From contig JAGMCR010000013.1 of NCBI GenBank assembly GCA_023129115.1, forward strand, positions 26,726 through 90,725: a stretch of DNA of 64,000 bases, given 5' to 3'. The notes under the pieces were generated by a model. It was not told where the DNA came from. It searched no databases and saw only the letters and a list, made by a program, of their open reading frames with translations. How positions within the stretch are numbered: the first letter of the stretch is position 1; each line of letters opens with the position of its first letter. Of this stretch, positions 23,361 through 40,331 are shown piece after piece. Both the position numbers and the translations under genes were made by a program. Source of the stretch: Candidatus Iainarchaeum sp. (lineage in GTDB: Archaea > B1Sed10-29 > WALL01).

Positions 23361-24722
23361 CTATTTTTTTGCCAGGAATGGGTTCTTCCTCACCAGCGTC
23401 TTGTACACATTCCACCAGCCGTCAGCGTCACTCAGGTGCCTCCCGGCCTCGGCTTCCTTTCCCTTCTTCTCGTGCTTCAGCTTTGCCTTGGCCTTGCCCG
23501 TCGGCACCTCGAACTTCGTGGGGTGCCCCCACGTCGTCTGGCCGTGGTACTCCCTCTTCCCCTTCAGCGAATGCCTTGCCTTCTCATAGCTAAGCTTTGC
23601 CCACGCGTGATGCATGTGTGTAAACCACGCCTTCAGCATTTCCTCTCCCGCCTTCTCGACCTTCCGCGCCTCGTAATCATCCCTGGACTCGCCCTCCTCC
23701 CGCGGCACGATTTTGTAGACCTTTTTCATGTGCTCGAGCGCGTCCTTCCGCGCTGCGTCAAACGGCAGCTCGTAGTCCTCAAGCCTCACGGCCTCGCCCT
23801 GCTGCTTCCGCTCCGCCAGGTCAAACATGGCGTATACCAGGTGATTCACCCCGGGCACGACGCTGTGCAGCGGCCACCCGACTTCTAACCACGCAGTGCT
23901 TCCTGCAGTCGCGGCGTGGACGCCGGGCTCGGACTTCCTCAGCTCGTAAAGCTCCCTCAGCACATCGGAAAAGTTTTTTTGGGTCTTTTTTATCTCTCTC
24001 TCGTGCTCCGGTGTCCCAATCTTCCCGAGCAGCTTTATGTCGCGGTCCAGCCGCGCCAGGTCGCTCTCAATCGAGTGCTCGGTGAACGCCTCGCACACCC
24101 GCCGCGTCTTGCCGTAGTCAAGCTCGCCCCGATGCTTCAGCGCAAGCGCCCTCATGAAGTCGCCCCGCCGCGACGCGACGACCTGCTCCGGAACAGTCTC
24201 CTTGTTCCCGACCGGCAAAAACGCGTACGACAAGGCAATCAAGTCACCCTTCAGCGTCTCGTACCCCACCCTCTTTGCCTTAGGCTTGCCCTTGTTCCAC
24301 TCCACCGCAAAGTCATTCAGGGCGTCCTTCCGAATCTTCTGGCGATTCTCGTACAGGTAGCCCACCATTTTCTGCATCCGCTTCACGCGGCTGCCAATGA
24401 ACGTCTGCCGCAGCTGCATGTTGAAGTGGTGAGCGATTGCGCCCGCGAGCACGTTCTTCTTGAAGCTCTTCCGCTTCCGAATTGTGTCCACGATTGCCTC
24501 GGCCTCGTGGCTTCGCCGTCCCTTCAGCAGGGGGTGCCGCGGCGCCAGCACGCGCGAGAAGTCAAGGAACTGGCCCCAGTATTCTCCGTCCCTGGCACCG
24601 TCGCGCTGCTCCCGCTTATGTATCCACTCGCGGATGCTGCCGTCCCTGATTTGCCCTGGCTTCCTGGCGATTTCGCCGAAAAAGTCGAACTTCCGCCTGA
24701 ATTCCAGCTCCATCTTGGGCAT
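23361..24722 (-). CDS. Basic helical orphan protein
   Basis: Long ORF divergent from the HerA-like gene; no recognised motif. Confidence 0.7.
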   Translation of the reverse strand: MPKMELEFRRKFDFFGEIARKPGQIRDGSIREWIHKREQRDGARDGEYWGQFLDFSRVLAPRHPLLKGRRSHEAEAIVDTIRKRKSFKKNVLAGAIAHHFNMQLRQTFIGSRVKRMQKMVGYLYENRQKIRKDALNDFAVEWNKGKPKAKRVGYETLKGDLIALSYAFLPVGNKETVPEQVVASRRGDFMRALALKHRGELDYGKTRRVCEAFTEHSIESDLARLDRDIKLLGKIGTPEHEREIKKTQKNFSDVLRELYELRKSEPGVHAATAGSTAWLEVGWPLHSVVPGVNHLVYAMFDLAERKQQGEAVRLEDYELPFDAARKDALEHMKKVYKIVPREEGESRDDYEARKVEKAGEEMLKAWFTHMHHAWAKLSYEKARHSLKGKREYHGQTTWGHPTKFEVPTGKAKAKLKHEKKGKEAEAGRHLSDADGWWNVYKTLVRKNPFLAKK

Positions 24723-24758
24723 CACCTATTTATACGCTTATTCCGTATATAATCCTGC

Positions 24759-27122
24759 ATGGAATTCAAGCCAAGGGTCAACTCCCCCCTGGACGCGCTG
24801 GAAGACGCCGCAGGCCGCAGCATTTTCGTGGGCCGCAGCCAGGCCCTCCACCGCAAGTACGGCCGCGAGGGCGCCCTGCTGCTGGGCAAAGTCGCGGAAC
24901 AGGAAAAATACGGCGAGTTCGTCTACCTCGACGCATTGATGCCCCACACCATTTTCGTGTGCGGTTCAAAAGGCTCTGGCAAAAGCTATTCGATATCAAT
25001 CATCGCCGAGGAATTGATTTACAAGAACCCAAATGTCGCAGTCGTAATCATCGACCCCATCGGCATCTTTTGGTCCATGAAGTACCCAAACCAGGAAGAG
25101 TCCGAGCTCGACGAATTGATTCGCATGGGCCTCGCGCCGCGCGGCGTCGCCGAGACGCGAGTCTTCGTCCCGTACGGTGTCCGCAACACTTTGCCGCGCG
25201 ACACCTACGACAAGACGTACGCACTGCGCCCCGCCGACTTGAACGTGGACGACTGGTGCATCACTTTCGACATCGACCGGTTCTCCCCAACCGGCCTGCT
25301 CCTCGAAAAAACGCTCGAAAAAGTGTTCAACGGCTACAAGACCACGGACAAAAAGCACGTGAACCCCAACCCGGACTACGGCCTCGAAGAAATAATCAAC
25401 TGCCTCAACAACGACGCAGAGCTTTCCTCGAAGACCAAGGGCTTCAAGACGGACTCGCGCCGCGCGCTGACGTCCCGCTTCGAGTCGGCAAAGTCGTGGG
25501 GCATTTTTTCCGCGAGCGGCACTCCGCTCGTCGAATTGTGCCAGGAGGGCAAGGTCTCTGTAATCGACGTCTCGTTCCTTGACGAAAAAGTCAACGCGCT
25601 CGTCATCGGGCTGCTCGCGCGAAAGATTCTTAACGCGCGCAAGCTCGCGACGCGCAAGACCGCGATGAAGCGGCTCGCCGTGTCCATGGAGGAAGTCCTG
25701 GAGACCGGCATCCCGCCGACGTGGCTGTTCATCGACGAGGCCCACACCCTGATTCCCTCGGGCTCGCAGAAGACCGCCGCCTCGGACGCGCTCATTGAGT
25801 ACGTGAAGCAGGGCCGCCGCCCGGGATGCTCGCTCGTGATGGCGACGCAGCAGCCCGCCGCGCTCGACACCAAAGTCCTCTCGCAGCTCGACCTGCTGGT
25901 CTGCCACAAGCTCACGTTCGACGACGACATCAAGGCCGTGTTCAAGCGAATGCCCGCGGGCATCCCCAAGGAGTATTCCGCCCGATTCATCAAGACGCTC
26001 CCAATCGGGTATTGCTTGATTGGCGACAGGAGCGACCACACGAACAGGGTGTTCGCCGCCAAAATGCGGCCGCGGTTCTCGCAGCACGAGGGCCGCGAGA
26101 CGCGGAGCGTCGACTTCGAGGAGACCCTGTCCGCGGAACAGGTGGAAGAGCTTGTCGTAAAGATGGTCAAGAAGCAATTGGTCGACTTCGGCCGCGTGAA
26201 CCTTTCCAAAATAGACCAATTGGCCCGCACCATCAACAAGCGCTACGGCACCAAAGTCTCTGCCAAGTCAGTGGTCAAGGCAATCGAGGGCGCGGCGGTG
26301 GACAACGAGCAGCTCGTGCTGAAGGAAATCCTTGAGCAGGAGCAGGCCGCGGCCGAGGACTTGCCTGAAGAGCCGGCGCCCGAGGCGCCGAGCGGCGAGA
26401 ACCTGCTGGCGTTCACTTCCCAAATCAGCGCGGAGCGGGCGAAGGGCCTGGCATTGAAGCAGCGCAAGGCGAAATTATTCGGCTTGTTCGGGGACGAGGA
26501 GTCCTTGAAGGACCTGCGCATCGAGTACTGGCCGGTGTACAAGGTGGAGTACGACTATTACCAGGGCAAGGGCTTCAAGCGCTTGGTGTGCTACGTGGAC
26601 GGCATGAACGGCGAATTGTTGAGCGTCGGCAGGGCGGGGATGGCCTCGACGCGCGGCGTGGGCCGCTTGACCACAATGAACAAGAGCAAGCGCAAGATAA
26701 TCGCGGCCCTGCGCAAGGGCAAGCAGGCGAGCGCGAAGGGAATCGCGGGCGTCGCCGAAATCACCGAGACGACCGCGCGGGCGAACGCGGAGGAATTGGC
26801 CGAGGACGGCCTGCTCTCTTATCGCGACGACGGCCGCGCCCGGACTTACGTGCTGAAGGAGCAGTTCGACCTGCCGCAGAAAATCAATGTGCCGGAGTAC
26901 ACTACTCTTGAGTCGCAATTAACGATGGGCGAGGCGAGCGGGTTTGTCCCCACGCCCCGCATCACACAGGAGTCTGTTTCCGACATCCCCGCGATTTTCG
27001 GCGAAGTAAAAATCAAGTCTGTTTCTTTCGTGTACCGCCCGGTCTACCACGCCTCGTTTGCCTCCACGAAGGGCCCCCGCGACGTCTACATAGACGGCAT
27101 TGACGGGGCGGTGGCAAGATGA
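24759..27122 (+). CDS. HerA/FtsK-superfamily ATPase (DUF87-like) with a C-terminal HTH-containing extension
   Basis: Walker A GSKGSGKS, IIDPIG, Walker B LFIDEAH, GRRPG and ATQQP. Confidence 0.9.
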   Translation: MEFKPRVNSPLDALEDAAGRSIFVGRSQALHRKYGREGALLLGKVAEQEKYGEFVYLDALMPHTIFVCGSKGSGKSYSISIIAEELIYKNPNVAVVIIDPIGIFWSMKYPNQEESELDELIRMGLAPRGVAETRVFVPYGVRNTLPRDTYDKTYALRPADLNVDDWCITFDIDRFSPTGLLLEKTLEKVFNGYKTTDKKHVNPNPDYGLEEIINCLNNDAELSSKTKGFKTDSRRALTSRFESAKSWGIFSASGTPLVELCQEGKVSVIDVSFLDEKVNALVIGLLARKILNARKLATRKTAMKRLAVSMEEVLETGIPPTWLFIDEAHTLIPSGSQKTAASDALIEYVKQGRRPGCSLVMATQQPAALDTKVLSQLDLLVCHKLTFDDDIKAVFKRMPAGIPKEYSARFIKTLPIGYCLIGDRSDHTNRVFAAKMRPRFSQHEGRETRSVDFEETLSAEQVEELVVKMVKKQLVDFGRVNLSKIDQLARTINKRYGTKVSAKSVVKAIEGAAVDNEQLVLKEILEQEQAAAEDLPEEPAPEAPSGENLLAFTSQISAERAKGLALKQRKAKLFGLFGDEESLKDLRIEYWPVYKVEYDYYQGKGFKRLVCYVDGMNGELLSVGRAGMASTRGVGRLTTMNKSKRKIIAALRKGKQASAKGIAGVAEITETTARANAEELAEDGLLSYRDDGRARTYVLKEQFDLPQKINVPEYTTLESQLTMGEASGFVPTPRITQESVSDIPAIFGEVKIKSVSFVYRPVYHASFASTKGPRDVYIDGIDGAVAR

Positions 27123-28162
27123 TGCGGGAGCTGGCGAGGCAGCATTACATTGAGACCATGAGGCGGCTCCCGAAGTATGAGGGCGTCGGCGAGAGCTTCC
27201 ACGACAGGGAGGCGGAGCGCTACGCAGACTTTTACACGCTCGGCCCCCGGCAGGGCGCGACCCTGGCGAACCTGCGGGAGCACGGCAGCGAAGAGCACCC
27301 CGAGGGCCTGAACGAGAAGAGGGTCACCGAGTGGCTCGCCTCAAAGTTCGTGGATGAGCAGGCCATGGCGCTGAGGCTTGTGCCGGGCCTTGCCCCGGAC
27401 CCCGAGTTCAAGAAGATGGCCGACGTCATGGCGCACTGCCGCGAAATCATCAGGAACAAGTTCGGCGAGGGCACCAAGGAGTTCAAGAGCTTCCGGCTCA
27501 AGCACCTCCGCAACACGCTGGTTGACTATACCAACATGTACTTGTACGGCCCGAGGGGCAAGGTCGACCGGGGCTGGCTCAAGAGCAGGATTGAAAGGTT
27601 CGACTACTTGTGGGCAGTGCCCGGCTGGGACCCGCACCCCGAGTTCGCGGGCGTGGGCGAGCCAATCAGGCGGCTTCGGGAGAGGCAGGAACAGGCCGGC
27701 GCAACGCTCGATGAGCCACTGGCGCCAAGGGCTTCGTCGCTGCTCCGCGCCGTCAAGCCCGGGGAAACAACTCCTACTCCAACACCAGAACTGGGGGTGT
27801 CGCCAGAACAGTCTCCGACGCCAACCGGGGGGACGCCAAAACCGGGGACGCCTGCTCCAACGCAAGAACCGGGGGTGTCGCCAGAATCGGCGACACCCCC
27901 AATTGCTGAGGCTGGGGAACCCGAGAAGCCAATTCCCGTGCTGAAGCAGGAAGAGGAAGAAGACGTGCTTTCCCTGCTGAAAAAGGAGACCCAAAATGAC
28001 CTGCTCATCCACGCCCGCACCCTGGCCATGCTCAAGCCAGGAAAAAAGGTGACCATGGGAGACGTGGACCTATTGTCGTCTAAGATTATGGACCGCGGCA
28101 TTGGCTACGAGGACGCGAAGAAGATAGCCAGGAAAATCATGGAGCAGGCAAGGCAGGGGTAG
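27119..28162 (+). CDS. Orphan modular protein 1 (Pro/Thr linker, shared C-terminal helical domain)
   Basis: ATGA overlap with the ATPase; C-terminus resembles those of 29161 and 31194. Confidence 0.75.
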   Translation: MMRELARQHYIETMRRLPKYEGVGESFHDREAERYADFYTLGPRQGATLANLREHGSEEHPEGLNEKRVTEWLASKFVDEQAMALRLVPGLAPDPEFKKMADVMAHCREIIRNKFGEGTKEFKSFRLKHLRNTLVDYTNMYLYGPRGKVDRGWLKSRIERFDYLWAVPGWDPHPEFAGVGEPIRRLRERQEQAGATLDEPLAPRASSLLRAVKPGETTPTPTPELGVSPEQSPTPTGGTPKPGTPAPTQEPGVSPESATPPIAEAGEPEKPIPVLKQEEEEDVLSLLKKETQNDLLIHARTLAMLKPGKKVTMGDVDLLSSKIMDRGIGYEDAKKIARKIMEQARQG

Positions 28163-28167
28163 TTGCC

Positions 28168-29094
28168 ATGAAGGCGAAGAGCAGCAGGCACAGGGTTGAG
28201 GAAGGCATTCGCGGCTCCCCCAAGAACCGGACTGAGCAGGTCGTCCATTTCCTGGAGCCAGGCAAGGACCTCCACATCAAGGACATAACCCAAGAGGCCT
28301 ACAAATATTTCGACATTGACCGCAAGCAGGTCCTGTCCACACTCATGCAGGGGGCAAAGGGGCCCGGCGCTTTTTTCGAGAGGATTAAGCCCGCCCATTA
28401 CCGCCTGACGCCCCTGGGCAAAGAGCTCCAGAAGCTGGTCGAGCTGCCGCCCATGCGCGAGCTCCCGCCCGAGCCAGAGCCCGAGCCGCCGAAGAGCATT
28501 GAGGAAGCGCTGGAAGAGGAGTACTTCAGCATCACGGGCAAGAACCGCTCCAGCAAGCGCGTGCAGGATTCGGCAAAGCGCTTCAGGAACCTTTTTTTGA
28601 CGGGCGTGTGGGCAACCGCGGAAAGCGAGGCGCCCAAGGGCTCGACCAGCGGCGTGGTGCGCAGGAAGAGGAGGCGCATCCTGTCCTGGATTAGCACCCA
28701 CAAGCGGAACGCTTCGGAGCTCGCGAGGCTTGTGCAGGGCGAGCGCGAGTTTATGTACCCCGAGCTCATGAAGGACGCCAAGCCACACCCCGAGCTCGCG
28801 GAAAAAATGACTGTGCCAGTGAAAAAGCAGGCTGTCGAGCGCTGGGACTTGGGTGCGAAGTACGACGACGCCATTTTCGCGGTGTGCAGGGAAAGGGAGT
28901 GCACGCCCCAGTTCCAGGACCCGCGCTTCACGGCGAGCGACACCAGCCGCCACCTATTGCTGGCCATGCTGGTGAGGGACGCCCGGGAAGAGGTCGAGTC
29001 ATGGGAAAACCCACCCAAGGCCTACGAAAAGGACAAGCTCGGCTATCTGAGGAAAATTGTCGAGAACTGGGTCAAAAACAAGCACAAGGGTTGA
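28168..29094 (+). CDS. Orphan modular protein 2 (N-terminal wHTH-like domain)
   Basis: FFERIKPAHYRLTPLG wing motif, similar to LFERPDYVYFLTPRG in 31194. Confidence 0.75.
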   Translation: MKAKSSRHRVEEGIRGSPKNRTEQVVHFLEPGKDLHIKDITQEAYKYFDIDRKQVLSTLMQGAKGPGAFFERIKPAHYRLTPLGKELQKLVELPPMRELPPEPEPEPPKSIEEALEEEYFSITGKNRSSKRVQDSAKRFRNLFLTGVWATAESEAPKGSTSGVVRRKRRRILSWISTHKRNASELARLVQGEREFMYPELMKDAKPHPELAEKMTVPVKKQAVERWDLGAKYDDAIFAVCRERECTPQFQDPRFTASDTSRHLLLAMLVRDAREEVESWENPPKAYEKDKLGYLRKIVENWVKNKHKG

Positions 29095-29097
29095 TTC

Positions 29098-29160
29098 TGT
29101 CTAGACGTTTAGATTAAAACCCTACTATTTTATAAACTGTCTAGACATTTAAATTAATTA
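29098..29160 (+). promoter_or_regulatory. Promoter with a TATA box flanked by two TGTCTAGAC[AG] palindromes
   Basis: TGTCTAGACG at 29098, TTTATAAA, then TGTCTAGACA at 29138. Confidence 0.75.
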
Positions 29161-31128
29161 ATGGAGAAGCGCGGCAGGAAGAAGGGCTACAGGTACACGA
29201 AGTACGACCCCAAGCGCTATTACTCTCCTGGCGACGCCCGCATCGAGGTTTGGAAGCGCATCGAGAAAAAGGAGTTTGAGAAGGGCTTCTTCTCGTACAA
29301 GGAGAACCGTGTGCTCGCCATCCAGATGCTCGTCGCGAAGCTCGTGCGGGACAAGGGCCTCCAGGTAAGCGAAATCACGAGGGACCACTTCAGGGAACAC
29401 GGCATGGACTGCCTGATTACTTATTTCAAGTCCAAGGAAAAGGCGCTCCGCGCCGCGGGGTTTTCCGACGAGTTAATCACGACCAAGCCGGCGGAGCACG
29501 ACGTCAGGGACATTCGGAGGGCCGTCCGGCTCATCAAGGGCGTGAAGGCCTCGGAAGACATTGACGACACCTTGGACGGGCTGCACCGCAAAGTCTTCGG
29601 CAATGTGCCCAAAAAGATTGGCTACCGCTATCTCCTGAAACTCGCGGAGGAGCACACCGGAATTAAATACCGCACGCTTTACCAGCTCTTCAACCCGAAT
29701 TACGCGCGCTTCAAGAAGTACAGCCCCCGGCTCCGGGAGGAAATCCACGCCATCCGCGAGCAGTGGGGCCTCGAGGGAGAGACGGAGCCGGGCGAAGTGA
29801 AGCGCCCGGTGCACGTCCCGGGAGAAAGCCCGTTCAAGATGAGGGGCCTGACCGCCGAGGAAAAAACGCTCCTGCAGGACATACGCACGGGCTTCAGGAA
29901 CTGGGACTTGACCTTCCTCTCGAGGAAGAAAAAGATTCCTGGCAATGTATGGACTGTCCTGATACTCCCCGAGGTCAGGAAGCTTTCGAAAGAGCTGCTC
30001 AAGAAAAGCCCTGAGCACGAGCCCAGGCTGCTGAGGATGCTCCGCAGGATGTACAAGCGCTCAAGCCACCGCACGCGGGGCGACAAGCTCCTCGAGAGAG
30101 TCAAGGAGTCCCTCGAGAGGGAAATGCTCCTCGGCGGGCCAGAGACAGGAAAAACGCGGGAGCTCCGGCTGCCGGCAGGCGTGCTGGACAAGCTGCTCCC
30201 GTTCATGACACCGAACCGCCGCCTCCAGGAAGTGCTCGAGGAGGCACAGCAGTACTTTCCCGAGTTGAGTTTCCCCCAGGCCGAGGCCGCGGTCTATCTC
30301 GACAGGAGCAGTATTGACCCCCACATCAACCTGTCTTTCTTTGGCGGCGATTACGTGCGGACCAAGAAGGGCGAGGAGGCAGCGGCGTCCATTCTCCTGC
30401 CGCCGAAGCTTGGGACCCCGGCGAGGGAAGGGCTCGACCAAAAGCGCCTGCAGGAAGAGTCGGCCCGCGAGGAAGTGGAGCGGCTGAAGCGCGTGGCCGA
30501 AGAGGAATTGACCCCGGAGGAGAAAGAAGAACTGTTTGCCGACAAGGCACTGGAGGACTTCACCAGCGCCACCGGCGTCAAGGGCATGGTCGCCCAGCGG
30601 TTCAGGAACTATGTCAGGGCAGGCCCAGAGCATGATGTCAAGACACCGTCGGAGCACGCCACGAAGGAAGAGTTCAGGCTGCTGGGGCAGGAGATCCCCA
30701 AAGCCGGAATCGGCTTCAAGCAATGGCAAATCAAGCAGTGGCTCTCGAGGTACCTTGCGCACCCCGAGCTCAAGAAGTACCGGCGGGAGGACGAGCCGCT
30801 CCATGAAGTCGAGGAAGAGCCGCCCGAGATTCCGGTCCCAAAGACCAAAAAAAGGAAGAAAATCGGGCCGCCAGAGCCAAAGAAAGAAGAAGAGCCCCCG
30901 AAGCCCGCCGGCCGGCCCAGGGAGGTAAAGTCCCTGCTCGAGGGCCTCTCGGCGGCGGACCGGAAGAACTTTGACAGCCAGGCCCGCGGCCTCCTCAGGC
31001 AATGCGGTGGAGACGCCAGAAAGGCGACGGACCTGCTGGCCCAGAGCGTTTCGCGCCTGGGCTACGGCCCCCGCGAGGCCAGCAGGATAGCAGCCAAAAT
31101 AGTCGAAATAGAGAAAAAACTCTACTAA
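29161..31128 (+). CDS. Orphan modular protein 3
   Basis: N-terminal ~200 aa paralogous to 31194 (KLVRD.GLQVSE.T.DHF, YRTLYQLFNP.Y). Confidence 0.8.
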   Translation: MEKRGRKKGYRYTKYDPKRYYSPGDARIEVWKRIEKKEFEKGFFSYKENRVLAIQMLVAKLVRDKGLQVSEITRDHFREHGMDCLITYFKSKEKALRAAGFSDELITTKPAEHDVRDIRRAVRLIKGVKASEDIDDTLDGLHRKVFGNVPKKIGYRYLLKLAEEHTGIKYRTLYQLFNPNYARFKKYSPRLREEIHAIREQWGLEGETEPGEVKRPVHVPGESPFKMRGLTAEEKTLLQDIRTGFRNWDLTFLSRKKKIPGNVWTVLILPEVRKLSKELLKKSPEHEPRLLRMLRRMYKRSSHRTRGDKLLERVKESLEREMLLGGPETGKTRELRLPAGVLDKLLPFMTPNRRLQEVLEEAQQYFPELSFPQAEAAVYLDRSSIDPHINLSFFGGDYVRTKKGEEAAASILLPPKLGTPAREGLDQKRLQEESAREEVERLKRVAEEELTPEEKEELFADKALEDFTSATGVKGMVAQRFRNYVRAGPEHDVKTPSEHATKEEFRLLGQEIPKAGIGFKQWQIKQWLSRYLAHPELKKYRREDEPLHEVEEEPPEIPVPKTKKRKKIGPPEPKKEEEPPKPAGRPREVKSLLEGLSAADRKNFDSQARGLLRQCGGDARKATDLLAQSVSRLGYGPREASRIAAKIVEIEKKLY

Positions 31129-31131
31129 TTC

Positions 31132-31193
31132 TGTCTAGACGTTACGATTAATACCACTAGCTTTATATAATGTCTAGACGTTACGATTAATCA
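31132..31193 (+). promoter_or_regulatory. Promoter with a TATA box flanked by two identical 21-nt operator-like repeats
   Basis: TGTCTAGACGTTACGATTAAT at 31132-31152 and 31171-31191 around TTTATATAA. Confidence 0.8.
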
Positions 31194-34100
31194 ATGCCCA
31201 AGGGTTTGGAGGAAAGGAAGCTCGGCCGCAAGCCCGGCTTTAAGTTCCCGAAGGTCGAGCCGGACAAGCTGCGGCCAATAATCAAGGATTATCTTGAGAA
31301 GAAAAGGGATTCGCTCGCGGACGGCTTCTGGACGCACGAGGACCAGGCGGCGACTGCGGTGCGCATGATGGTCGGGAAGCTCGTGCGGGACCGCGGCCTG
31401 CAGGTGAGCGAAGTCACTCAAGACCATTTCCCTGAGTTTGGCATGGGGAGCGCGCTTAGGGTTTTCGGCTCGAAGGAAAACGCGCTCAAGGCCGCGGGGT
31501 TTTCTGACGAGCTAATCAATACAAAGCCGGCGGAGCACGATGTCGCGAGCATTCGAAACGCGGTCCGCTTGATTGAGGGCGTCAAGGGCCCGGGGGACAT
31601 TGACGAGGCTTTGCACAACTTGCACCGCAGGGTGTTCGGTGATTCTCCCAAGCGGGTCAGCTATCGTTATTTGCTGAAGCTCGCGGAAGAATACACGGAC
31701 ATCAATTATCGCACGCTTTACCAGCTCTTCAACCCGAAGTATTCCCGGTTCAAGGATTTCGACAAGGGCCTCAAGGACGGCATAAAAGCAATCCGCAGGC
31801 ACTGGCGCATCGGGGAAAAAGTGGCGGTGAAGCGTGAAGTGTACTCGCCGCTTGACCGCGGTTTGCTGGAGAAGCGAAAGCGGGCGAGTGCCGACGAGCG
31901 AAAGGCGGCTCACTGGTTTAACGTTAATCTCAAGGATGCTAGTACTGCTTCCGTCGGGGGGCTGAGGCGCGGCCTCACGGTATTGCCGCTGCTTTCGCAC
32001 GAGGTGCGTGTGGCAATCCTCGCGCGCCTTAAGCCTGAGAACTATGACTATCGCGTGTCTTTCAGGAAAGGCGTCGTGGGGTTGACTACGAAGGAGCGGG
32101 AGGCGATAAGGCCGCACGTGCCCCCCGGGCTCAAGGAGCTTTTTGACGAAATCCCGCTTGGCGGAGTGGACCTGGAGCTGCCTTCGGCAAAGGCGGCTGA
32201 GGAAGACTTGTGGGAGAAGCAGAGGGAGCTCCAGAGGCTGGAGACCCAGAAACTGATTGAGGAGTGGAAGGAAGAGCTGCTGGAAGAGGGGGAGAGGCAA
32301 TTGCGGGAGAAGGCGAGGGACGAGCAGGACTACCAGAAAATGCGTAGGGCAGAGGAAGAAAAGCTGGAGAGGCAGCGCAAGGCGGAGACGTGGAGGCGCT
32401 TGCTGAAGGAGAAGAGGGCGGAGCAGGAAAGGGAGGGGAGGGAGAAGGCGCTTGAGGAAAAGAAGAGGCAGCGCCAGGAAATGAAGCAGAAGCTGTTCGA
32501 GGAAAAAGAGGAAAAGAAGCGCTTGGGGATGGAGGCGAAGCGGCTCAAGAAGCAAAAGGAAGAGCAGGAGCGCGAGGCGCAGAAGGAATGGGAAAAGCAG
32601 CAAAAAGAATTGCAGAAACAGAAAGAAGCCGCGGAAGTTGTCGAGAAAGGCGTTGCCTTCTTGGAGGAGTCGGCTGAGGGAGAGGGTTGGTTCGTTAGTT
32701 CTAAGGAGCGTGTGGACCGGGTCCCGCTTTCGTTCTTGTCGGGGGAGCTAGACAAGCCTGGCCCGAGACTAGGGAAGTATTTTGATGGCATGTCCTCCGA
32801 GCAGCTGGAGCGCGTGAAGGCGGCTGCAGACAAAAACGCGGCAAAGCAGGCGGCGAAGAAGGCGGTGAAGCAAAGGGCGGTGGAAGAGCAGGAGCTGGCG
32901 AGGCGGGAGGCCTGGGCGAAGAGACAGGCGGAAATGGAGAAGGCTCGGGCGAAGAGAAAAGAGGAAGTGGAGAAGGCTCTGGAAGCGAAAGCCGGGGAGG
33001 AAGCGAGGCTAATCAAGGAGCTCACCGAAGCCAGCGCCCCAGACCTCCCTGCCATGACACATACCCAGAAGATTTACGAGTTCGGCCGCACGCACAAGGG
33101 CTTCAGGACAAACGAATTGATGGCGTGGCTGGAGGCACGCGATCCAACCATCTCGCGCAATCGCCATGGCGTGTACTATGCTATTGGGCGAATGTACAGG
33201 AACAAAAAAGAGCTGTCCAAGACGGACAGCGTCTACACTTTTACTCCGGAGGGGGAGCGCAGCATCAAGCTCCACGAGGGCCTCAAGGGGAAGAGAACCC
33301 CAGAGACCATGGCCGAAAGAATCTTCTCTTTGGTAGAGCCGGGAGTGGGGTATTCAAGCCACTGGCTTATCGAGAACCTGTCCAAGCATTACAAGGAAGA
33401 CAAGGACCTGGACTCCAAGACGTTCAGCACCAAGATTCACGCCAGCCTGCACACCGGCCTTCTCTTCGAAAGGCCGGACTATGTTTATTTCCTGACGCCC
33501 AGGGGGGTCGAGAACAGGAAGCCGATTGCGTCCGTCCATGACCTCAAGGAAGCGCTGGGCGAGCCCCCCGCAGAAATTGCCGGCGAGGCCGTTGAGCTGG
33601 AGATTGGCGGCAAGCCCAGAAGGGTCGTGCTCACCCCCAAAGAAAAGGAGATCCTGGGCAAGCTCCGTGGCGGCTTCGAGAAAAAGACTTTGCGCTTTGT
33701 CGCCACCGAAAGGTTCCTCCAGGCTTACGGCAATTTGATAGTGCCGGAGGTGGAAAAGCTGGCACTGAAGTTCCTCAGGGACAACCCGACTGCCGGGGCA
33801 CTTGAGACCCTGCGCGTTATAGTGGGCACCATGTACGCGGACCCCAAGACGGCGAGTGCCGGCAGGATTATCAGCAACGTAAGGGCAGAGCTCGCCAAGG
33901 AAGGCATTGAAGTAAAAGAGCCAGCCCCGCAGAAGGCGGTTGCGCCCGAGGGGCCCAGCGCCACGGAGGAAGAGCTCTGGGCGGAAATAATTGCGCGGCA
34001 GAAAGAAGAGGAGAAACAAAAGAAGAAAGAAGAGCCAAAAAAGCCTTCAGGCGCGGGGAAGCCGGGCAGGGCAAAATTCGGGGAAGAGCGCCCGCCCGTG

Positions 34101-34283
34101 TCGCTGAAGGACTTGCCGGCCACAGAACAGTACAACCTCGCTGTCCAGGCCCGCAACCTGCGCAAGAAGTTCAGCCCCAGCCAAGCCGTGCGATTCCTGG
34201 CCGAGCAGATAGAGGCCAAGGGCTACGGCAAGGCCGACGCAGTAAGAATAGCAAAGGAAATCCTGGAGAAAGAAAAGCAATAG
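31194..34283 (+). CDS. Orphan modular protein 4 (coiled coil, one GEGW-HTH repeat, two wHTH-like domains)
   Basis: E/K/R-rich coil; AFLEESAEGEGW unit; YTFTPEG and YFLTPRG wing motifs. Confidence 0.8.
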   Translation: MPKGLEERKLGRKPGFKFPKVEPDKLRPIIKDYLEKKRDSLADGFWTHEDQAATAVRMMVGKLVRDRGLQVSEVTQDHFPEFGMGSALRVFGSKENALKAAGFSDELINTKPAEHDVASIRNAVRLIEGVKGPGDIDEALHNLHRRVFGDSPKRVSYRYLLKLAEEYTDINYRTLYQLFNPKYSRFKDFDKGLKDGIKAIRRHWRIGEKVAVKREVYSPLDRGLLEKRKRASADERKAAHWFNVNLKDASTASVGGLRRGLTVLPLLSHEVRVAILARLKPENYDYRVSFRKGVVGLTTKEREAIRPHVPPGLKELFDEIPLGGVDLELPSAKAAEEDLWEKQRELQRLETQKLIEEWKEELLEEGERQLREKARDEQDYQKMRRAEEEKLERQRKAETWRRLLKEKRAEQEREGREKALEEKKRQRQEMKQKLFEEKEEKKRLGMEAKRLKKQKEEQEREAQKEWEKQQKELQKQKEAAEVVEKGVAFLEESAEGEGWFVSSKERVDRVPLSFLSGELDKPGPRLGKYFDGMSSEQLERVKAAADKNAAKQAAKKAVKQRAVEEQELARREAWAKRQAEMEKARAKRKEEVEKALEAKAGEEARLIKELTEASAPDLPAMTHTQKIYEFGRTHKGFRTNELMAWLEARDPTISRNRHGVYYAIGRMYRNKKELSKTDSVYTFTPEGERSIKLHEGLKGKRTPETMAERIFSLVEPGVGYSSHWLIENLSKHYKEDKDLDSKTFSTKIHASLHTGLLFERPDYVYFLTPRGVENRKPIASVHDLKEALGEPPAEIAGEAVELEIGGKPRRVVLTPKEKEILGKLRGGFEKKTLRFVATERFLQAYGNLIVPEVEKLALKFLRDNPTAGALETLRVIVGTMYADPKTASAGRIISNVRAELAKEGIEVKEPAPQKAVAPEGPSATEEELWAEIIARQKEEEKQKKKEEPKKPSGAGKPGRAKFGEERPPVSLKDLPATEQYNLAVQARNLRKKFSPSQAVRFLAEQIEAKGYGKADAVRIAKEILEKEKQ

Positions 34284-34352
34284 TAGTTTCATCCGTATTC
34301 AATATCTCCCGCAAACAAAGGTCTTTATAAACTACTCCTGCGTTTATTGCGT

Positions 34353-37300
34353 ATGCCCAAGCGCGGAAAGAAAAAGCGTGGCTCCAGGTTCAGCGTCGAC
34401 AAGGCGGTTGTCCATCTCGAGAGCCGCATCGATTCCGGCGAGGGCTGGCCGCTCACACAAGGGAGGAGGCGGCCTGATGGCTTGCCGGCCTCTTTTTTGG
34501 GCAAGAAGTTTGGCGTTAGCACGGCCACGGTTTTACGCCACTTCGAAGGCATCAGCGCCGGGCACAAGAAGCGCCTTGCAACAACAGTCAAGAAAAACGC
34601 AGCAATCCAGGCAGCGAAGCGCGAGAGCGGCGAAGTAGGCAAGCTCTTCAAGAGGAGGGGGGACGCAATCCTCCACATAGAGCAGCTCGTCCAGTCCGGC
34701 GAGGGCTGGCCGATTACCGATGGCGTACCAAGTAAGTATGGCATACCAATCCACGGGCTGGCGAGGCGCTTTGGAGTCGCCCCCGAGACTGTGAGGGCGT
34801 GGTTCGATACAATGTCTGCCACGCACACAAAACAAATCAAGGCAGCAGTGAAGAAAAACGAAAGAATCCAAAAAAAGAAGCGCGAGACCGAAGGCCAGGC
34901 GACGGCGTGGACAAAGAAAAATCTTGACGCCGCCCTTAATCACTTGGACGGGCTCGTCCAGTCCGGCGAGGGCTGGCCGTTGGGCAAGGGCAGGAGGCGC
35001 GCCGATGGGGCGCCGCTCACTCTCCTGGCAGCGCAGCTTGGCTATTCCCACAAGGGGGTGACTCACTGGTTTGACAACATCACTCCCAGGCACGCGGCTC
35101 GCTTGGCAAAGATTGTCGCGAAAAACAATGCCGTCCAAGAAAAAAAGAAGGCGGCCGGCGAGCCCAGGCTGTCGGCAGCGGGGATAAACTGCGAGGCTGC
35201 CCTGTCCCATTTGGAGTCGCTTGTTAAGTCTGGTGCCGGGTGGAGCCTGCACTACGTAAGGCGCTCCGACAGCGTGCCGACCAGTATTGTGGCCAATCAC
35301 TTGGGGGTTTCTTATTCGACGGCCATGCGCTTGTTTGAGAAGCTTCACCCCAGCCACGAGAAGCGCGTGAAGAAAGTCGTGAATGCAAACAAGCGGCTGC
35401 AGAAGAAGCTGGAAAAGCTCTATGGGCCGCTTAATCCCAAAACTCGGGCGCAGCTCGAAAAGGCCCTCGGCCACTTGGACTCGCTTGTGAAGTCGGGCGA
35501 GGGGTGGGAGCTGGCCGGCGGCAGGCCGCCGAAGCATGGTGTCCCCTACGGCGTTTTGGCCGATAAGTTCAACATGACGAACGCAGGCGTGCGCGTGTGG
35601 TTCACCAATATGGGGAGCGTCCACGCGAAGCGGCTGAAAAAGATTGTTGCGGCGAATGACCGGATTCGGAAGAAAAAACTGGGGACCGAGGGGGTCTCGC
35701 GGGCGGAGGCGGTAATGCGGCGGGAGGCCGCCATCGAGCACCTTGAAGAGCGCGTCAATTCCGGGGAGGGCTGGTCTATTAAGGGGCGGAGGACGGCTGA
35801 CGCGATTCCTTTCACGCTTTTGGGCAAGAAGTTCAACAGGCGCGCCAATATTGTTGCGGCATGGTTCAAGAACATGCCTGCAGGCCACAAGAAGCGCGTG
35901 GAAAGGGTGCTCAGGAAGAACGCTAAGCTGTGGGAGAGGACGGGAGAATCCACGTTGCACAAGAACCGCGGGCAAGCAATTTCTTATCTCGAGTCCCGCG
36001 TGGAGTCGGGCGAGGGCTGGGACACTGCCTATGTCAAGCATGCGCTGGGCGTTCCCCTCCAGCTTTTGGTCGAGCACTTTAAGACAAGCGTGACCACGCC
36101 GGGGAAGTGGTTCGCGGACGTGCCGGCTGCCCACAAGAAGCGCATCAAGAAGGTCGTGAAAGAGAATGATGCGCTTCAGTACGAAAACGTGGATACTGTC
36201 GGCCGCTGGGCACAGGACAGGCACGAGGCGTTGTCCCACTTGGAGAATCGTGTGAAGTCCGGCGAGGGCTGGCCGTTGCGCGGCAGGAAGTGGGGCAAGC
36301 CCCCGTATACTCTATTGGCGGAGCATTTCAATGTCGCCTCGCCCACTGTAAAGCGTTGGTTCGAAAAAATTGGTGAATCGCACCACGCGCGCCTCAACAA
36401 AGTGTTGACGGAGAACACAGTTCTCCAAAAGAAAAAGGGGGAGGGTGTGCTCTCCCCACAAGAATTGAGGAAGCTTGAGAAATCACTCGCCTTCCTCGAG
36501 GGCCGTGTTGGGTCGGGCGAGGGCTGGTCCAGGCGCTACGGCCGCAGGCACCCCGACCGCTTGCCGGTCATGCTTCTGGCCGACGGGCTTAATGCAAGCA
36601 AGGAGAAGGTCAAGCAGTGGTTCTCGAAGGCCACTCCAGGCCATGTAGAGCGCTTGGCGAAAGTCGTTGAGGCGAACGACGAGCTCCAGGACGCGAAGCC
36701 CCCACAGAAGTCCAGCACGTCCAGTGTCGTGGTACTCAAGAAAATCAACGCGGCCATGGGCCGCCTAGACGAATTGCTGGAGGAGGGCGGGTGGCGCCCC
36801 TCTTGGCGCGCGGACGGTGTGCCTGTTTCCGTCATCGCGAAGGAGATGAAGAAGAGTGGCCCAACAGTGAGGTACTGGCTGGAGAGGATGACCGAGGAAC
36901 AAAAGGCGCGGTTGACCGCACAAGTGAAAAAGAATGCTGGGATTCAGGCCGCGAGAGCTGAAGAATCGAAGAGGCAGGCAGAAGAAATCAAAAAGGCGAA
37001 GGCGGCCGAGCGCGGGAGGCAGAAGCAAGCCGAGCGGCTTGCGGAGAGGGAGAAAAAGATTGATGATTCACTTGACCACTTGAAAACATTGCTTGGGGGG
37101 GATGGCTGGTCGCTGAAGCACGGAAGAAACCGGGTGGACCGGGCGCCGGTTCGCATTATGGGCAAGCTTCACGGCGTCAGCCGGCTGACCGCCGCCTCGT
37201 GGATGAACAACGCGACCGAAGAGCAGAAGCAGCGGCTCGCGGTTCTCGTGGGGGAGAATGACGCAATCCAGGCGGCGAAGCAGCCGCCGAGACAGCCCCG

Positions 37301-38201
37301 CGCGCCAGCGAAGCGGCGGCCGCCGAAGAAGGAAACCTTGGTTCCCCTGCCGCCAGAGCAGCGGCGGCCTCCGAGGGACGACTTGGAGAGGCTGCTTTAC
37401 CACATGGCTGACGAGGAAGGCAATCCAACAGAGCCTTCCTACATGGAGCTCGCGATGAAGGCCAGGATGAAGCCGTTCGAGGCGCTTGGCGTCCTCACGA
37501 GGGAAAGAGGCGATGTGGGCGCGCTCGTCAAGAAGGGCCGGGCCCGTGGCACTTACACGTTTTCCAGGAAGGGCGCCGAGGTGTGGAAGAAGCTGTTGCC
37601 GCCGGGCGAGGAGCGGATTGGCGCGCCTGCTGCAAAGCCCGCGCGGGAAGAGAAAGTGGTGGAAGTAGAGCCCGAGGGCGGGAAAAAGCCGCCTGGCCCG
37701 CGCGTACTTGGCGTCAAGAACTACCGCGATGCTTACCGGGTTCTCCAGGAGCTCGTGGATTCTGGCGAGGGCTGGGGGCACACTGCCAATGGAAAGATGC
37801 CGTTCATGGCTGTCCTGGCCAGGCGCACGGGCCAGTCATTGGATAAGGTGCGGAAGTGGTTCAGTAAAATGTCGCTGGAACGGGAAAGTGAGCTGGCGTA
37901 CCTCATGAAGAAGAACGATGCAATCCAGCTGGAGAAGTACTGGGGCGAGGACGTGCCGGACCGCAAGAAACTCAGCGCCGAGTTCACTGAGGTCACTGGG
38001 CTTGGCGGCGCTCTTGCCGACCGGTTCGTTGACTACGTCTTGTTTGGTGTTGCCGAAACTGCTAGGCGCGAGCTCACGGGTGGGAAGCTAAAGAACGTGG
38101 GCGAGGGAACATTCAGCTTAGGGAAGAGGCAGATAGAGGGCTGGATAGACAAGATAATGAGCCAGCACTCCACGCTAAAGAAGTACAAGCGGAAGCGTTA
38201 G
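34353..38201 (+). CDS. Orphan protein with 12 ~85-aa SGEGW helix-turn-helix repeats
   Basis: Consensus A..HLE..V.SGEGW-x-P...LA..F.V....V..WF......H..RL...V..N...Q; TATA box at about 34324. Confidence 0.85.
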   Translation: MPKRGKKKRGSRFSVDKAVVHLESRIDSGEGWPLTQGRRRPDGLPASFLGKKFGVSTATVLRHFEGISAGHKKRLATTVKKNAAIQAAKRESGEVGKLFKRRGDAILHIEQLVQSGEGWPITDGVPSKYGIPIHGLARRFGVAPETVRAWFDTMSATHTKQIKAAVKKNERIQKKKRETEGQATAWTKKNLDAALNHLDGLVQSGEGWPLGKGRRRADGAPLTLLAAQLGYSHKGVTHWFDNITPRHAARLAKIVAKNNAVQEKKKAAGEPRLSAAGINCEAALSHLESLVKSGAGWSLHYVRRSDSVPTSIVANHLGVSYSTAMRLFEKLHPSHEKRVKKVVNANKRLQKKLEKLYGPLNPKTRAQLEKALGHLDSLVKSGEGWELAGGRPPKHGVPYGVLADKFNMTNAGVRVWFTNMGSVHAKRLKKIVAANDRIRKKKLGTEGVSRAEAVMRREAAIEHLEERVNSGEGWSIKGRRTADAIPFTLLGKKFNRRANIVAAWFKNMPAGHKKRVERVLRKNAKLWERTGESTLHKNRGQAISYLESRVESGEGWDTAYVKHALGVPLQLLVEHFKTSVTTPGKWFADVPAAHKKRIKKVVKENDALQYENVDTVGRWAQDRHEALSHLENRVKSGEGWPLRGRKWGKPPYTLLAEHFNVASPTVKRWFEKIGESHHARLNKVLTENTVLQKKKGEGVLSPQELRKLEKSLAFLEGRVGSGEGWSRRYGRRHPDRLPVMLLADGLNASKEKVKQWFSKATPGHVERLAKVVEANDELQDAKPPQKSSTSSVVVLKKINAAMGRLDELLEEGGWRPSWRADGVPVSVIAKEMKKSGPTVRYWLERMTEEQKARLTAQVKKNAGIQAARAEESKRQAEEIKKAKAAERGRQKQAERLAEREKKIDDSLDHLKTLLGGDGWSLKHGRNRVDRAPVRIMGKLHGVSRLTAASWMNNATEEQKQRLAVLVGENDAIQAAKQPPRQPRAPAKRRPPKKETLVPLPPEQRRPPRDDLERLLYHMADEEGNPTEPSYMELAMKARMKPFEALGVLTRERGDVGALVKKGRARGTYTFSRKGAEVWKKLLPPGEERIGAPAAKPAREEKVVEVEPEGGKKPPGPRVLGVKNYRDAYRVLQELVDSGEGWGHTANGKMPFMAVLARRTGQSLDKVRKWFSKMSLERESELAYLMKKNDAIQLEKYWGEDVPDRKKLSAEFTEVTGLGGALADRFVDYVLFGVAETARRELTGGKLKNVGEGTFSLGKRQIEGWIDKIMSQHSTLKKYKRKR

Positions 38202-38485
38202 TGGCTCGCGACGTCCCAGACCGAGATGTACTTGCCCTCGCGCTCCGGCGCAGGGGGTATGGGGGCGGACTCCTTCTTTTGTTGGTAGTCACGTATGTGC
38301 ACTGTATACTCTGCGATGCTGTCGCGTATTTTAATTATGCCGGTCCCGTCGTCGATTATCTCGACTTCGTCGCCGAGCATTCCCCTTACGACTAATAAGT
38401 CTTCGTTGTAAGCCCACCCATATTTTTCCATGGATGTTAGCTTTGCTGACGCCACTAGGCGTGTCTCAAAACTTCCAAGAGACAT
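38198..38485 (-). CDS. Hypothetical protein
   Basis: 95-aa ORF with an upstream TATA-like element. Confidence 0.5.
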   Translation of the reverse strand: MSLGSFETRLVASAKLTSMEKYGWAYNEDLLVVRGMLGDEVEIIDDGTGIIKIRDSIAEYTVHIRDYQQKKESAPIPPAPEREGKYISVWDVASH

Positions 38486-38572
38486 GTTCCCACCATACCC
38501 AACCCTTAAAAGCAGGTTTTCGTTTATAAAGGTTGCCCTAATTATTGCAATCTAGGCAACAAACTACATTGG

Positions 38573-38596
38573 GGGGGACGCCAATTGGCGTCCCCC
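38573..38596. repeat. Family C perfect 24-bp palindrome
   Basis: GGGGGACGCCAATTGGCGTCCCCC. Confidence 0.85.
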
Positions 38597-38641
38597 AAGC
38601 CTGTCGTAAAACGAGCCGGTTTTGGGGGCGTATGGTTGTTG

Positions 38642-39037
38642 TCAGCTTAACACAACTGTTTTGCAGTTCTTAATCCCGTTTATGGCGCTGATTTCGCCAG
38701 CCAGTTTTTTGATTTGCCTGGCCTCCCCCCTGGCAATCAAGACCTCAACGCAGTCGTCGTGGCTGACGTGGGCGTGCATGGTGGATATAACACAGTCGAA
38801 ATGGTGCTGGATTTCCACAAGCTTGTGGTTCACGCCCCTGACCCCATGGTCGTACTGGAAAGAGATTGTTGCTATCCGTGTCCCCCCCTCCTGCCACGCC
38901 TTGTCCACAATGAAGCCTGTTAGCGCGTCGCCAACCGCCTTGGACCTGTTGAAGTATCCCATGCCCCTGATGGTCTCGTCGAACTTCTTGACCAATTTCC
39001 CGGGCAGGGAAACGCCAAACCTTACTACGTCACTCAA
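38642..39037 (-). CDS. nikR: Nickel-responsive regulator NikR
   Basis: RHH region RFGVSL..NRSKAV; Ni ligands QH and HAHVSHDDCVE. Confidence 0.92.
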   Translation of the reverse strand: MSDVVRFGVSLPGKLVKKFDETIRGMGYFNRSKAVGDALTGFIVDKAWQEGGTRIATISFQYDHGVRGVNHKLVEIQHHFDCVISTMHAHVSHDDCVEVLIARGEARQIKKLAGEISAINGIKNCKTVVLS

Positions 39038-39097
39038 GAAAAATCACCTCTGTGTTATCTTTGGTTTGAGAATGTGTCACTTTCAATAACCTTATAA

Positions 39098-39124
39098 GTA
39101 ACACCTTTATAAAATTTGTGTTAT
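39098..39124. promoter_or_regulatory. Putative NikR operator overlapping a TATA box
   Basis: Inverted repeat GTAACAC-N13-GTGTTAT; the spacer contains TTTATAAA. Confidence 0.6.
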
Positions 39125-39141
39125 TAAAAGGGTGTGACAAA

Positions 39142-39423
39142 ATGTGGCTGGTGACAACACTCATTGCGGCGTTGGCAGTGACTGCGGCATGGTTCGTGGC
39201 CCCCAAAAAATATAAGCTGGGCATACCAAGCCTTATGCTGTGGGGGGCGGGGGCAATGATAATGGTCGACCATGTGCTGGGGTATGAGGGCGGGGCATTC
39301 CTGGAACTGCAGACAGAGGGCCTAATCCCAAATGGGATAGTGCTTGGAATTGTTATGCTCATACCTGTATTCGCAATATGGGAGATTGTGCTTTTGATTG
39401 ACAGGGTTAAAGGAAAAATTTAA
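39142..39423 (+). CDS. Small three-TM membrane protein A
   Basis: LMLWGAG.M.MVDH; paralog of the next gene. Confidence 0.75.
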   Translation: MWLVTTLIAALAVTAAWFVAPKKYKLGIPSLMLWGAGAMIMVDHVLGYEGGAFLELQTEGLIPNGIVLGIVMLIPVFAIWEIVLLIDRVKGKI

Positions 39424-39438
39424 GTAGGGTGATAAAAA

Positions 39439-39765: not shown

Positions 39766-39809
39766 GGGCACCTGGTTCTAGGGATGCCTCTCGACGGGAA
39801 ACGCCATAG

Positions 39810-40205: not shown

Positions 40206-40230
40206 CTCATTATCCCAGTAAAAATAATCC

Positions 40231-40296
40231 CCGGGCGCAAGGCCGCCCGGCGGCAGGGGGGGGCTGCGCCCTCAGGGGGCTGTGGTGCGGGGGAAG
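40231..40296 (-). repeat. tRNA 3'-end remnant with CCA, followed by a family B-like hairpin
   Basis: Minus strand CTTCCCCCGCACCA (40283-40296); GGCGCAAGGCCGCCCGG is shared with ~42046 and ~42126. Confidence 0.65.
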
Positions 40297-40331
40297 AGAA
40301 ACATGACTGGTCAAGACACGAATCCTTTACA

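Follow-up and report, generated by a model that had tools for sequence, protein, structure and literature searches.

In the archaeal DNA considered here, a window of 64,000 nucleotides from contig JAGMCR010000013.1 of Candidatus Iainarchaeum sp., six co-oriented genes lie on the + strand: the gene of a HerA-superfamily ATPase is followed by five genes, referred to as the cassette, that together span positions 27119-38201. The host is an Iainarchaeum-like DPANN archaeon whose assembly comprises 1.25 Mb in 19 contigs and is 88.6% complete. A preliminary description of the sequence had pointed to five co-oriented genes behind the ATPase that reuse the same modules, and this was borne out, all open reading frames (ORFs) being on the + strand; the ATGA overlap said to join the first gene to the ATPase is real and lies at 27119-27122. 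For the comparisons below, the assembly under study is denoted G000, its congener G002, and the five relatives in the same family G001-G005; the cassette-bearing genomes number six. Database homologues of the ATPase and of the N-terminal domain described below are labelled Candidatus Iainarchaeum or Diapherotrites archaeon, and the runs listed as matching the locus are cold-seep metagenomes only. Most of the locus is tiled at ≥99% identity by contigs from two further runs of the same study, which attests to recurrence of the sequence only.

Architecture of the cassette and kinship of its modules

The cassette genes are designated by their start positions. The first, 27119 (27119..28162, +), codes for a 347-residue protein with an orphan N-terminal part of ~200 residues, a Pro/Thr/Glu-rich linker and, at 27992-28159, the C-terminal module (a). 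Gene 28168 (28168..29094, +; 308 residues) carries a putative winged helix (28201-28461), a PEPEPEP linker, a region resembling module (d) (28489-28767) and a C-terminal domain also present in G2_427, a 427-residue protein of the congener. The third gene, 29161 (29161..31128, +; 655 residues), contains an N-terminal domain called M1 (29161-29820), followed by modules (c) (29842-30015), (d) (30556-30804) and (a) (30937-31125). Its M1 includes a basic RGRKKG tail, a segment like the homing-endonuclease-associated repeat (HEAR; 29284-29466) and a helix-turn-helix (HTH)-like YRTLYQLFNP segment. The fourth, 31194 (31194..34283, +; 1029 residues), combines M1 (31218-31850), a module shared with G2_427 (31881-32153), a Lys/Glu-rich stretch that is probably a coiled coil (32196-32618), one HTH unit of the type termed GEGW-HTH (32619-32867), two putative winged helices unlike each other (33051-33308 and 33309-33578), module (c) (33579-33803) and module (a) (34086-34280). 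The fifth, 34353 (34353..38201, +), codes for 1282 residues from its ATG, or 1284 from an alternative upstream TTG at 34347. It consists of eleven GEGW-HTH repeats in tandem (34377-37301), a possible winged helix between repeats eleven and twelve (37419-37661), the twelfth repeat (37704-37952) and module (d) (37959-38198); no tandem repeat was seen at the DNA level in this gene. The isoelectric point (pI) is 9.4-10.2 in four of the five proteins, and the net charge of 34353 reaches +104. Four proteins had no match in Pfam, NCBIfam, PADLOC or PHROG while the last matched HTH families only, so that the label of orphans, initially given to all five, holds for four and fails for 34353. None of the cassette proteins matched a family of enzymes, membrane proteins, defence systems or phages, and a protein atlas gave no usable match for 29161. 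The GC content at third codon positions (GC3) is 0.75-0.83 in the cassette genes and 0.84 in the ATPase gene; given this closeness, the cassette genes look native in composition.

The sharing of modules was examined by all-versus-all BLAST, by profile-profile comparison with hhalign and by searches of the 10,055 six-frame ORFs of the own assembly, in which the background starts at E 1-3. The N-terminal domain (b) ascribed to both 29161 and 31194, i.e. M1, is shared at 53% identity over 220 residues (BLAST E 9e-66), and the remaining shared pieces gave BLAST E-values from 4e-8 to 2e-3. In the profile-profile comparison, by which the preliminary description had wanted its modules to be judged, the other three modules all proved significant against nine control comparisons (cross-module or reversed; P 0.076-0.56). 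Module (c) of 31194 matches that of 29161 with P 1.4e-7, and genome-wide the predicted partner ranks first (E 0.0032; next match E 2.4). Module (d) links 29161 to 34353 (P 2.1e-7) and the group of 28168 to both 34353 (P 1.2e-5) and 29161 (P 8.4e-5), the predicted partner again ranking first in the genome (E 0.0022/0.0032). For module (a), 31194 with its orthologue matches 29161 at a probability of 95.7% (P 1e-8); 27119 is more weakly related (P 2.2e-4 and 3.5e-4), being the best non-seed match in the genome (E 0.058) over its last ~30 residues only. The C-termini of the G003, G004 and G005 proteins are not significantly similar to module (a) (P 0.05-0.85), and seven C-termini submitted to Pfam returned no match. 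Of two further proposals, the first holds in part and the second holds but undercounts. Winged helices had been suggested in 28168, twice in 31194, and in 34353. Of the two in 31194, the second is matched by that of 28168 (P 2.7e-6) and the first is of another type, and the putative copy of 34353 matches none of the others (P 0.03-0.25). The single GEGW-HTH unit noticed in 31194 exists (E 4e-8) and is also single in the G002 orthologue, yet this understated its presence, since the last protein of the cassette holds twelve.

The centre of M1 is related to homing-endonuclease-associated repeats. When the M1 profile was compared with 1.84 billion representative proteins, five full-length members were recovered, all from this archaeal family, together with 659 proteins at E ≤ 1e-3 that are mostly multi-repeat and are matched at profile positions ~50-150. 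The proteins matching the centre of M1 are arrays of a 60-residue repeat, and three of the ten that were scanned carry the Pfam HNH_repeat (PF18780; best 9.7e-36). A hidden Markov model built from 27 such units matches residues 42-102 of 29161 with E 4e-9 (Z = 100,000), a segment that fits the GYW..KENR...DF...GL..LL......AL.EAGY repeat. Unlike HNH_repeat arrays, 29161 has a single copy, lacks a nuclease and fuses the repeat to a family-specific HTH-like half and a basic tail. At the PF18780 cut-off of 26 bits the kinship goes unrecorded: 29161 and 31194 had no match at E ≤ 0.1 and the G004 homologue scored 19.2 bits. Among the arrays themselves, proteins P0129-P0273 contain 4-11 copies of the 60-residue GYW..KENR repeat, some of them behind an AbrB/MazE-like N-terminus; they may form an under-described HNH_repeat branch that the Pfam model recognizes weakly or not at all.

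The structural model of the M1 domain is all-helical (predicted local distance difference test, pLDDT, 76.3; predicted template modelling score, pTM, 0.47). Its second half bears a weak likeness, not significant, to DNA-binding bundles of the Myb/SANT/Tc3 type (Z ≤ 4.8), and the M1 profile retrieved nothing below E 0.1 from the PDB. The most conserved stretch of the domain reads ..TL..L.NP.Y..F (FKTLQALLNP in the G004 homologue), and its N-terminal tail is KRGRK or KRGRP, which we take to recall the AT-hook core.

For the GEGW unit, of 83-88 residues, the model consists of four helices (pLDDT 82.7), among them 38-45, 49-57 and 61-82. Compared with PDB profiles it weakly matches engrailed (E 0.047), and 34353 as a whole passes several Pfam HTH cut-offs, although as sums over repeats: HTH_Tnp_4 (45.6; cut-off 27), HTH_23 (35.7; 24.6), Homeodomain (33; 22.9), HTH_72 and others. 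With its ..TV..WF.. recognition-helix signature and helical model, the unit resembles the three-helix HTH of homeodomains and transposases, from which it differs by an additional long N-terminal helix, the GEGW loop and its twelve copies per polypeptide. Word-index searches found the unit in three proteins, all from this archaeal family. The only hints of winged-helix families come from relatives of the cassette proteins, with a sub-threshold match to Mrr_N in G2_596 (E 8e-4) and several sub-threshold winged-helix matches in G4_1424. Against PDB profiles, module (a) retrieved de novo designed helical repeats, a composition-driven result, and the helix-hairpin-helix of topoisomerase V (E 0.4-2), so that a helix-hairpin-helix identity of this module is a weak lead. 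Judged by sequence, the recognizable modules are of DNA-binding types, namely a HEAR-like repeat, a homeodomain/transposase-like HTH and a putative winged helix. The idea of a recombining family of basic DNA-binding proteins is supported by these types, by the pI values, by the lack of hydrophobic segments and by a re-sorting of modules that is visible even between two species of one genus.

A two-site motif around the core promoters of the M1 genes

The gaps before 29161 and 31194 measure 66 and 65 nt and are near-copies of each other. In both, two direct copies of a 20-bp motif, TGTCTAGACRTTWMRATTAA, flank the TATA box. At 29161, the first putative operator copy (TGTCTAGACGTTTAGATTAA, 29098..29117, +) ends 10 nt upstream of the TATA box (TTTTATAAA, 29128..29136, +), and the second (TGTCTAGACATTTAAATTAA, 29138..29157, +) fills the space between TATA box and start codon. 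As the TATA box stands ~25 nt before the ATG, the mRNA would be near-leaderless. At 31194, the first copy (TGTCTAGACGTTACGATTAA, 31132..31151, +) precedes the TATA box (TTTATATAA, 31162..31170, +), while the second (31171..31190, +) abuts it and ends 3 nt before the ATG; this mRNA, too, would be near-leaderless. Gene 34353 possesses its own TATA box (CTTTATAAA, 34323-34331, +) devoid of the motif, and there is no room for a promoter before 27119 and 28168. All these TATA boxes were assigned by the archaeal promoter consensus, which we assume to apply here.

In the motif, the AT-rich half comes after an 8-bp palindrome, GTCTAGAC; the genome has 56% GC. From base composition, about 18 copies of the palindrome would be expected in the entire assembly; it has four, and all of them are these sites. 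The 20-mer is likewise present four times in the 1.25 Mb, each time in one of the two promoters, the next-best site having four mismatches; within the window, four were found against 0.01 expected. The relaxed pattern YCTAGAYRN6YTAA was searched genome-wide in the relatives: it is found twice in G002 and three times in G004, all five sites being at the homologous locus, and has no match in the G001, G003 and G005 genomes. Diverged variants of the motif are visible by eye upstream of M1-carrying genes in G001 and G005, and an alignment of the two G000 promoters with that of G002 extends over the full 69 nt. The core promoters of the M1 paralogues are thus surrounded by a two-site element that is conserved, unique in its genome and, in two relatives, exclusive to the locus. 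Its arrangement at 29161 and 31194 offers a clear example of the duplication of a promoter together with a domain. In metagenome contigs, the two-operator pattern was retrieved in at least 117 stretches; in the 80 loci fetched, neither the ATPase nor any of the 20 cassette proteins had a relative.

The neighbouring ATPase and the turnover of the cassette

The ATPase gene (24759..27122, +) is preceded by putative TATA boxes at 24728-24735 and 24745-24752 (+), read from the sequence, and codes for 787 residues that are 61-88% identical in all five family relatives. Its Walker A (GSKGSGKS, residues 69-76) and Walker B (LFIDEAH, residues 323-329) motifs and its Pfam scores (DUF87, 59.3 bits for a cut-off of 23.2; HerA_C, 22.6 for 22) place it in the HerA/FtsK superfamily (Pfam DUF87, PF01935). 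Solved HerA chains match the C-terminal part of its motor (E 5e-10 to 1e-6), and PADLOC HerA models also match only the C-terminal half of the motor. The protein differs from HerA by a ~330-residue C-terminal extension that carries a winged-helix-like region (residues ~640-705), and it forms a separate clade, which is conserved in genomes labelled Iainarchaeum and Micrarchaeota and whose members are often split at the P-loop by an intein. Identity with the repair helicase HerA was rejected (46.3/47.2 bits for NF040819/NF040937 cut-offs of 970/800), as was identity with the anti-phage HerA of Sir2-HerA and DUF4297-HerA systems (40.5/42.9 bits for NF042943/NF042944 cut-offs of 800/850). Neither Sir2, DUF4297 nor another effector family was found by Pfam and PADLOC in the five downstream proteins, and NurA (PF09376) had no match in the 88.6%-complete assembly or among the window neighbours scanned. 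VirB4, CedB and CedD were rejected with 15-31 bits for cut-offs of 590-700. Several genomes have an ATPase gene with an interruption close to the P-loop (query residues ~50-77) inside one long open frame (G004 C6:1385-5491 (L021), G023, G024, G027, G028 and G095), and database homologues of this type carry intein and LAGLIDADG Pfam domains. These interruptions are a sign of a highly conserved, probably essential gene. As a core gene of DPANN archaea, this conserved, intein-bearing and uncharacterized ATPase clade merits investigation.

Symbiosis is frequent among DPANN archaea, and the preliminary description envisaged that the cassette proteins might be exported effectors, which the ATPase would then send into a host cell. 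A neighbour from the HerA/FtsK/VirB4 superfamily and a shared C-terminal module, as a possible signal, would suit such a role. The proposal is nevertheless very improbable: neither the ATPase nor the five cassette proteins have a hydrophobic segment, no signal peptide was found, and the locus contains no membrane or channel genes that could provide a partner. The ATPase itself is not of the secretion type, falling far under the VirB4, CedB and CedD cut-offs, and is a conserved single gene in lineages devoid of the cassette.

The distributions of the ATPase and of the cassette are very different. The ATPase was found in 72 of the 101 relatives searched (E ≤ 1e-10). Among these are 28 of the 30 members of its class, most of which have a full-length copy that is 45-60% identical. 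Cassette-type genes occupy the ATPase locus in all five family relatives, their number and composition differing per genome, and their chromosomal position is fixed in four genera. Protein 29161 has relatives in four of the five family genomes and in none of 55 other relatives, and an index of 5.8 billion proteins yielded three proteins only. The M1 profile detected three loci in genome contigs, all in genomes already compared, and no relative in metagenome or viral contigs. A consistent linkage of cassette homologues to this ATPase clade, which the preliminary description had proposed to check, was looked for and did not appear beyond the family: in 12 ATPase loci from other families, no ORF of at least 90 residues matched any of the 20 cassette proteins (BLAST). 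A conserved 95-residue gene (38198..38485, -) lies convergent at the far edge of the cassette. In three of five genomes of the same order it directly abuts the ATPase gene, and in a fourth one gene intervenes. Since the cassette is specific to the family and the 95-residue gene is next to the ATPase elsewhere, the cassette is an insertion between the two. Elsewhere outside the family, methyltransferases, a Na/H exchanger or ~1050-residue proteins are the downstream neighbours of the ATPase. These ~1050-residue proteins, co-oriented behind the ATPase in three other families (L028:4683-7847, L030:4555-7743 and L032:4327-7446), have a low charge, a hydrophobic N-terminus and essentially no Pfam match.

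A functional coupling could be proposed in which the cassette proteins are adaptors or substrates docking on the hexameric ATPase through their C-terminal module, for instance so that the motor is loaded onto DNA for segregation or translocation near the Cdc6/Orc1 gene. The ATPase and the cassette are adjacent in all five family genomes, in both G000 and G002 the stop codon of the ATPase gene is overlapped by the first cassette gene in spite of unrelated N-termini, and module (a) is common to three of the five proteins; moreover, the ATPase has its own winged helix and a Cdc6/Orc1-like gene lies 3 kb upstream. This coupling is rather improbable in view of the presence of the ATPase in nearly all genomes of the class, of its variable downstream neighbours in the 12 loci outside the family and of the TATA boxes proper to three cassette genes. 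In addition, the 95-residue gene stands between the ATPase and the cassette in G003 and an opposite-strand gene does so in G005, and module (a) is not recognized in the C-termini of G003-G005. The earlier caution that nothing more than position may link the cassette to the ATPase is upheld by the class-wide presence of the ATPase, the restriction of the cassette to one family and the separate TATA boxes of three of its five genes.

The cassette changes faster than its surroundings. Between G000 and G002, six flanking genes are 72-96% identical, the ATPase among them with 88%, whereas the best cassette pair, 31194 and a 1060-residue protein, are full-length orthologues at 47% identity. Protein 28168 matches part of G2_427 at 38% identity (E 2e-32), the latter being a fusion in which the C-terminal half of 28168 is joined to a piece of 31194. 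In G002 the first gene has been replaced, so that nothing there corresponds to the N-terminus of 27119; nor is 27119 matched by an N-terminal domain that the position-1 genes have in common in G003, G004 and G005. In G004 the locus is split over two contigs that overlap by 41 identical residues.

This turnover, with cassette identities of at most 47%, brings to mind a conflict module, i.e. a selfish element, domesticated or in decay, or a system directed against mobile elements, that drew its DNA-binding heads from the pool of homing endonucleases, transposases and restriction enzymes and evolves in an arms race. The likeness of the modules to HEAR/HNH_repeat, transposase HTHs and Mrr_N fits this origin, a HEPN/nucleotidyltransferase pair and a tRNA-Arg lie 3-4 kb downstream, and addiction and restriction-control modules are typically under tight autoregulation through an operator of their own, as is proposed here. 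Such a module is unlikely, though less so than docking on the ATPase: the cassette shows no nuclease, integrase, transposase or other catalytic domain, four of its proteins have no PADLOC or PHROG match, its position is fixed in four genera, its GC3 looks native and the M1 profile has no relative in viral contigs.

The remaining neighbours of the locus were also surveyed. Upstream of the ATPase are found the Cdc6/Orc1-like gene, whose surroundings showed no repeats of the origin type, a GNAT gene, a conserved 127-residue gene and a divergent gene for a basic protein of 454 residues. The latter (23361-24725, -) has no Pfam match; its homologues occupy the same position in G001, G003, G004, G006 and G011 and are missing from G002. 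The 127-residue protein (22909-23292, +), also without Pfam match, is 96% identical in G002 over its first 92 residues and is present in G003 and G006; its C-terminus is a Glu/Ala/Pro repeat encoded by a 15/30-nt tandem repeat at 23215-23283. Further upstream, a 569-residue protein (18347-20056, +) contains three DUF4215 repeats (E 5.9e-12). Downstream of the cassette come the convergent 95-residue gene, small low-GC ORFs, the HEPN/nucleotidyltransferase pair, the tRNA-Arg and the arginyl-tRNA synthetase gene. The 95-residue protein, which has no Pfam match, begins in relatives with MGLG.F..+L.ASAK..S.EKYG, and its gene may be the true conserved neighbour of the ATPase given its adjacency and convergence in other families of the order. 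The stretch 38486-42306, between the cassette and the arginyl-tRNA synthetase gene, is low in GC (0.41-0.51) and contains small ORFs without Pfam match (39030-40345, -), the HEPN gene (40909-41346), the nucleotidyltransferase gene (41303-41893) and tRNA-Arg(TCT) at 42231-42306. Possibly the stretch is a small island that was inserted next to this tRNA. At 49889-50001, Rfam recognizes a 113-nt tRNA (58.7 bits) unreported by ARAGORN, probably an intron-containing archaeal tRNA.

A possible role and its likeness to known systems

It is moderately probable that the cassette encodes an autoregulated, family-specific set of cytoplasmic, mostly basic DNA-binding proteins of an architectural or silencer-like kind whose link to the ATPase is positional. 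Within this reading, the DNA-binding nature and the positional link are much firmer than the cellular role. The cassette would have been built by duplication and re-sorting of about eight small helical modules and inserted between a class-wide housekeeping ATPase gene and the 95-residue gene, at most its first two genes being co-transcribed with the ATPase. A protein encoded at the locus would bind the operator copies, fill the space between TATA box and start codon and block the pre-initiation complex, resulting in negative autoregulation. M1, with its RGRK tail, HEAR-like repeat and HTH, would be the likeliest operator binder because M1 and the operator duplicate together and co-occur, the motif being exact or variant, before six of six such genes; naming the binding protein is a guess. 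The twelve HTH repeats, the winged helices, the Lys/Glu-rich stretch and the C-terminal helical hairpin would bind DNA broadly, and the set would act as nucleoid-architectural or silencer-like proteins whose dose is capped by self-limitation. The preliminary description had also thought of a defence or chromatin system; no defence family was matched, and a chromatin-like or silencer-like role is the one that we favour, as an inference.

Several observations weigh against this interpretation. The ATGA overlap in G000 and an overlap of 1 nt in G002 suggest that translation of the first gene is coupled to that of the ATPase, and the very fast turnover is a better fit to a conflict-driven role than to plain housekeeping chromatin. 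The motif is much changed in G005, which keeps the M1 helix, and G004 has one motif site before a gene without M1. As for the folds, a wide search returned at best Z 4.8 for M1 (Myb domain of NgTRF; root-mean-square deviation 4.1, 65 aligned residues), under the noise of helical models, and Foldseek gave no match at E ≤ 0.001 for the M1 and GEGW models (best E 0.8-0.9).

DPANN genomes are tiny, and yet ~11 kb, or 0.9% of the assembly, is spent here on five unannotated proteins that change faster than their surroundings. If these proteins organize or silence DNA, they would represent a new kind of archaeal chromatin protein and a recycling of homing-endonuclease and transposase DNA-binding heads. 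A bolder form of this idea, which seems about as improbable as the adaptor role, is a DNA-coating or silencing system new to archaea, in which the twelve-headed array and its multi-headed partners, with their probable coiled coils, would polymerize on AT-rich or foreign DNA, their dose being capped by the two-site operator as read by a HEAR-derived regulator. In that case, the shuffling of modules would record how a DPANN lineage with a reduced genome has been in an arms race with mobile elements. A limited literature search, covering listings and the beginnings of abstracts, found no published account of the cluster or of the ATPase clade. The operator provides a ready handle for gel-shift and footprint work.

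In its mode of action, the proposed autoregulation can be compared with two groups of known systems. Restriction-modification controller (C) proteins and antitoxin autorepressors bind palindromic, repeated sites over their own promoter; here too, genome-unique palindromic repeated sites are located at the promoters of putative regulator genes. The likeness concerns the way of working only, and the cassette differs from these systems in that no enzyme or toxin partner was detected in it by Pfam, NCBIfam and PADLOC. Xenogeneic silencers and nucleoid proteins constitute the second group. None of the H-NS, Lsr2, Alba and histone families is among the Pfam and NCBIfam matches at E ≤ 0.1, and the comparison is again one of mode of action. 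H-NS, Lsr2, MvaT and Rok are basic proteins in which DNA-binding heads go together with oligomerizing helices; they have a preference for AT-rich DNA, and autoregulation is common among them. The cassette proteins are basic as well and the operator has an AT-rich half. In contrast with these silencers, the cassette proteins are 3-10 times larger and multi-headed.

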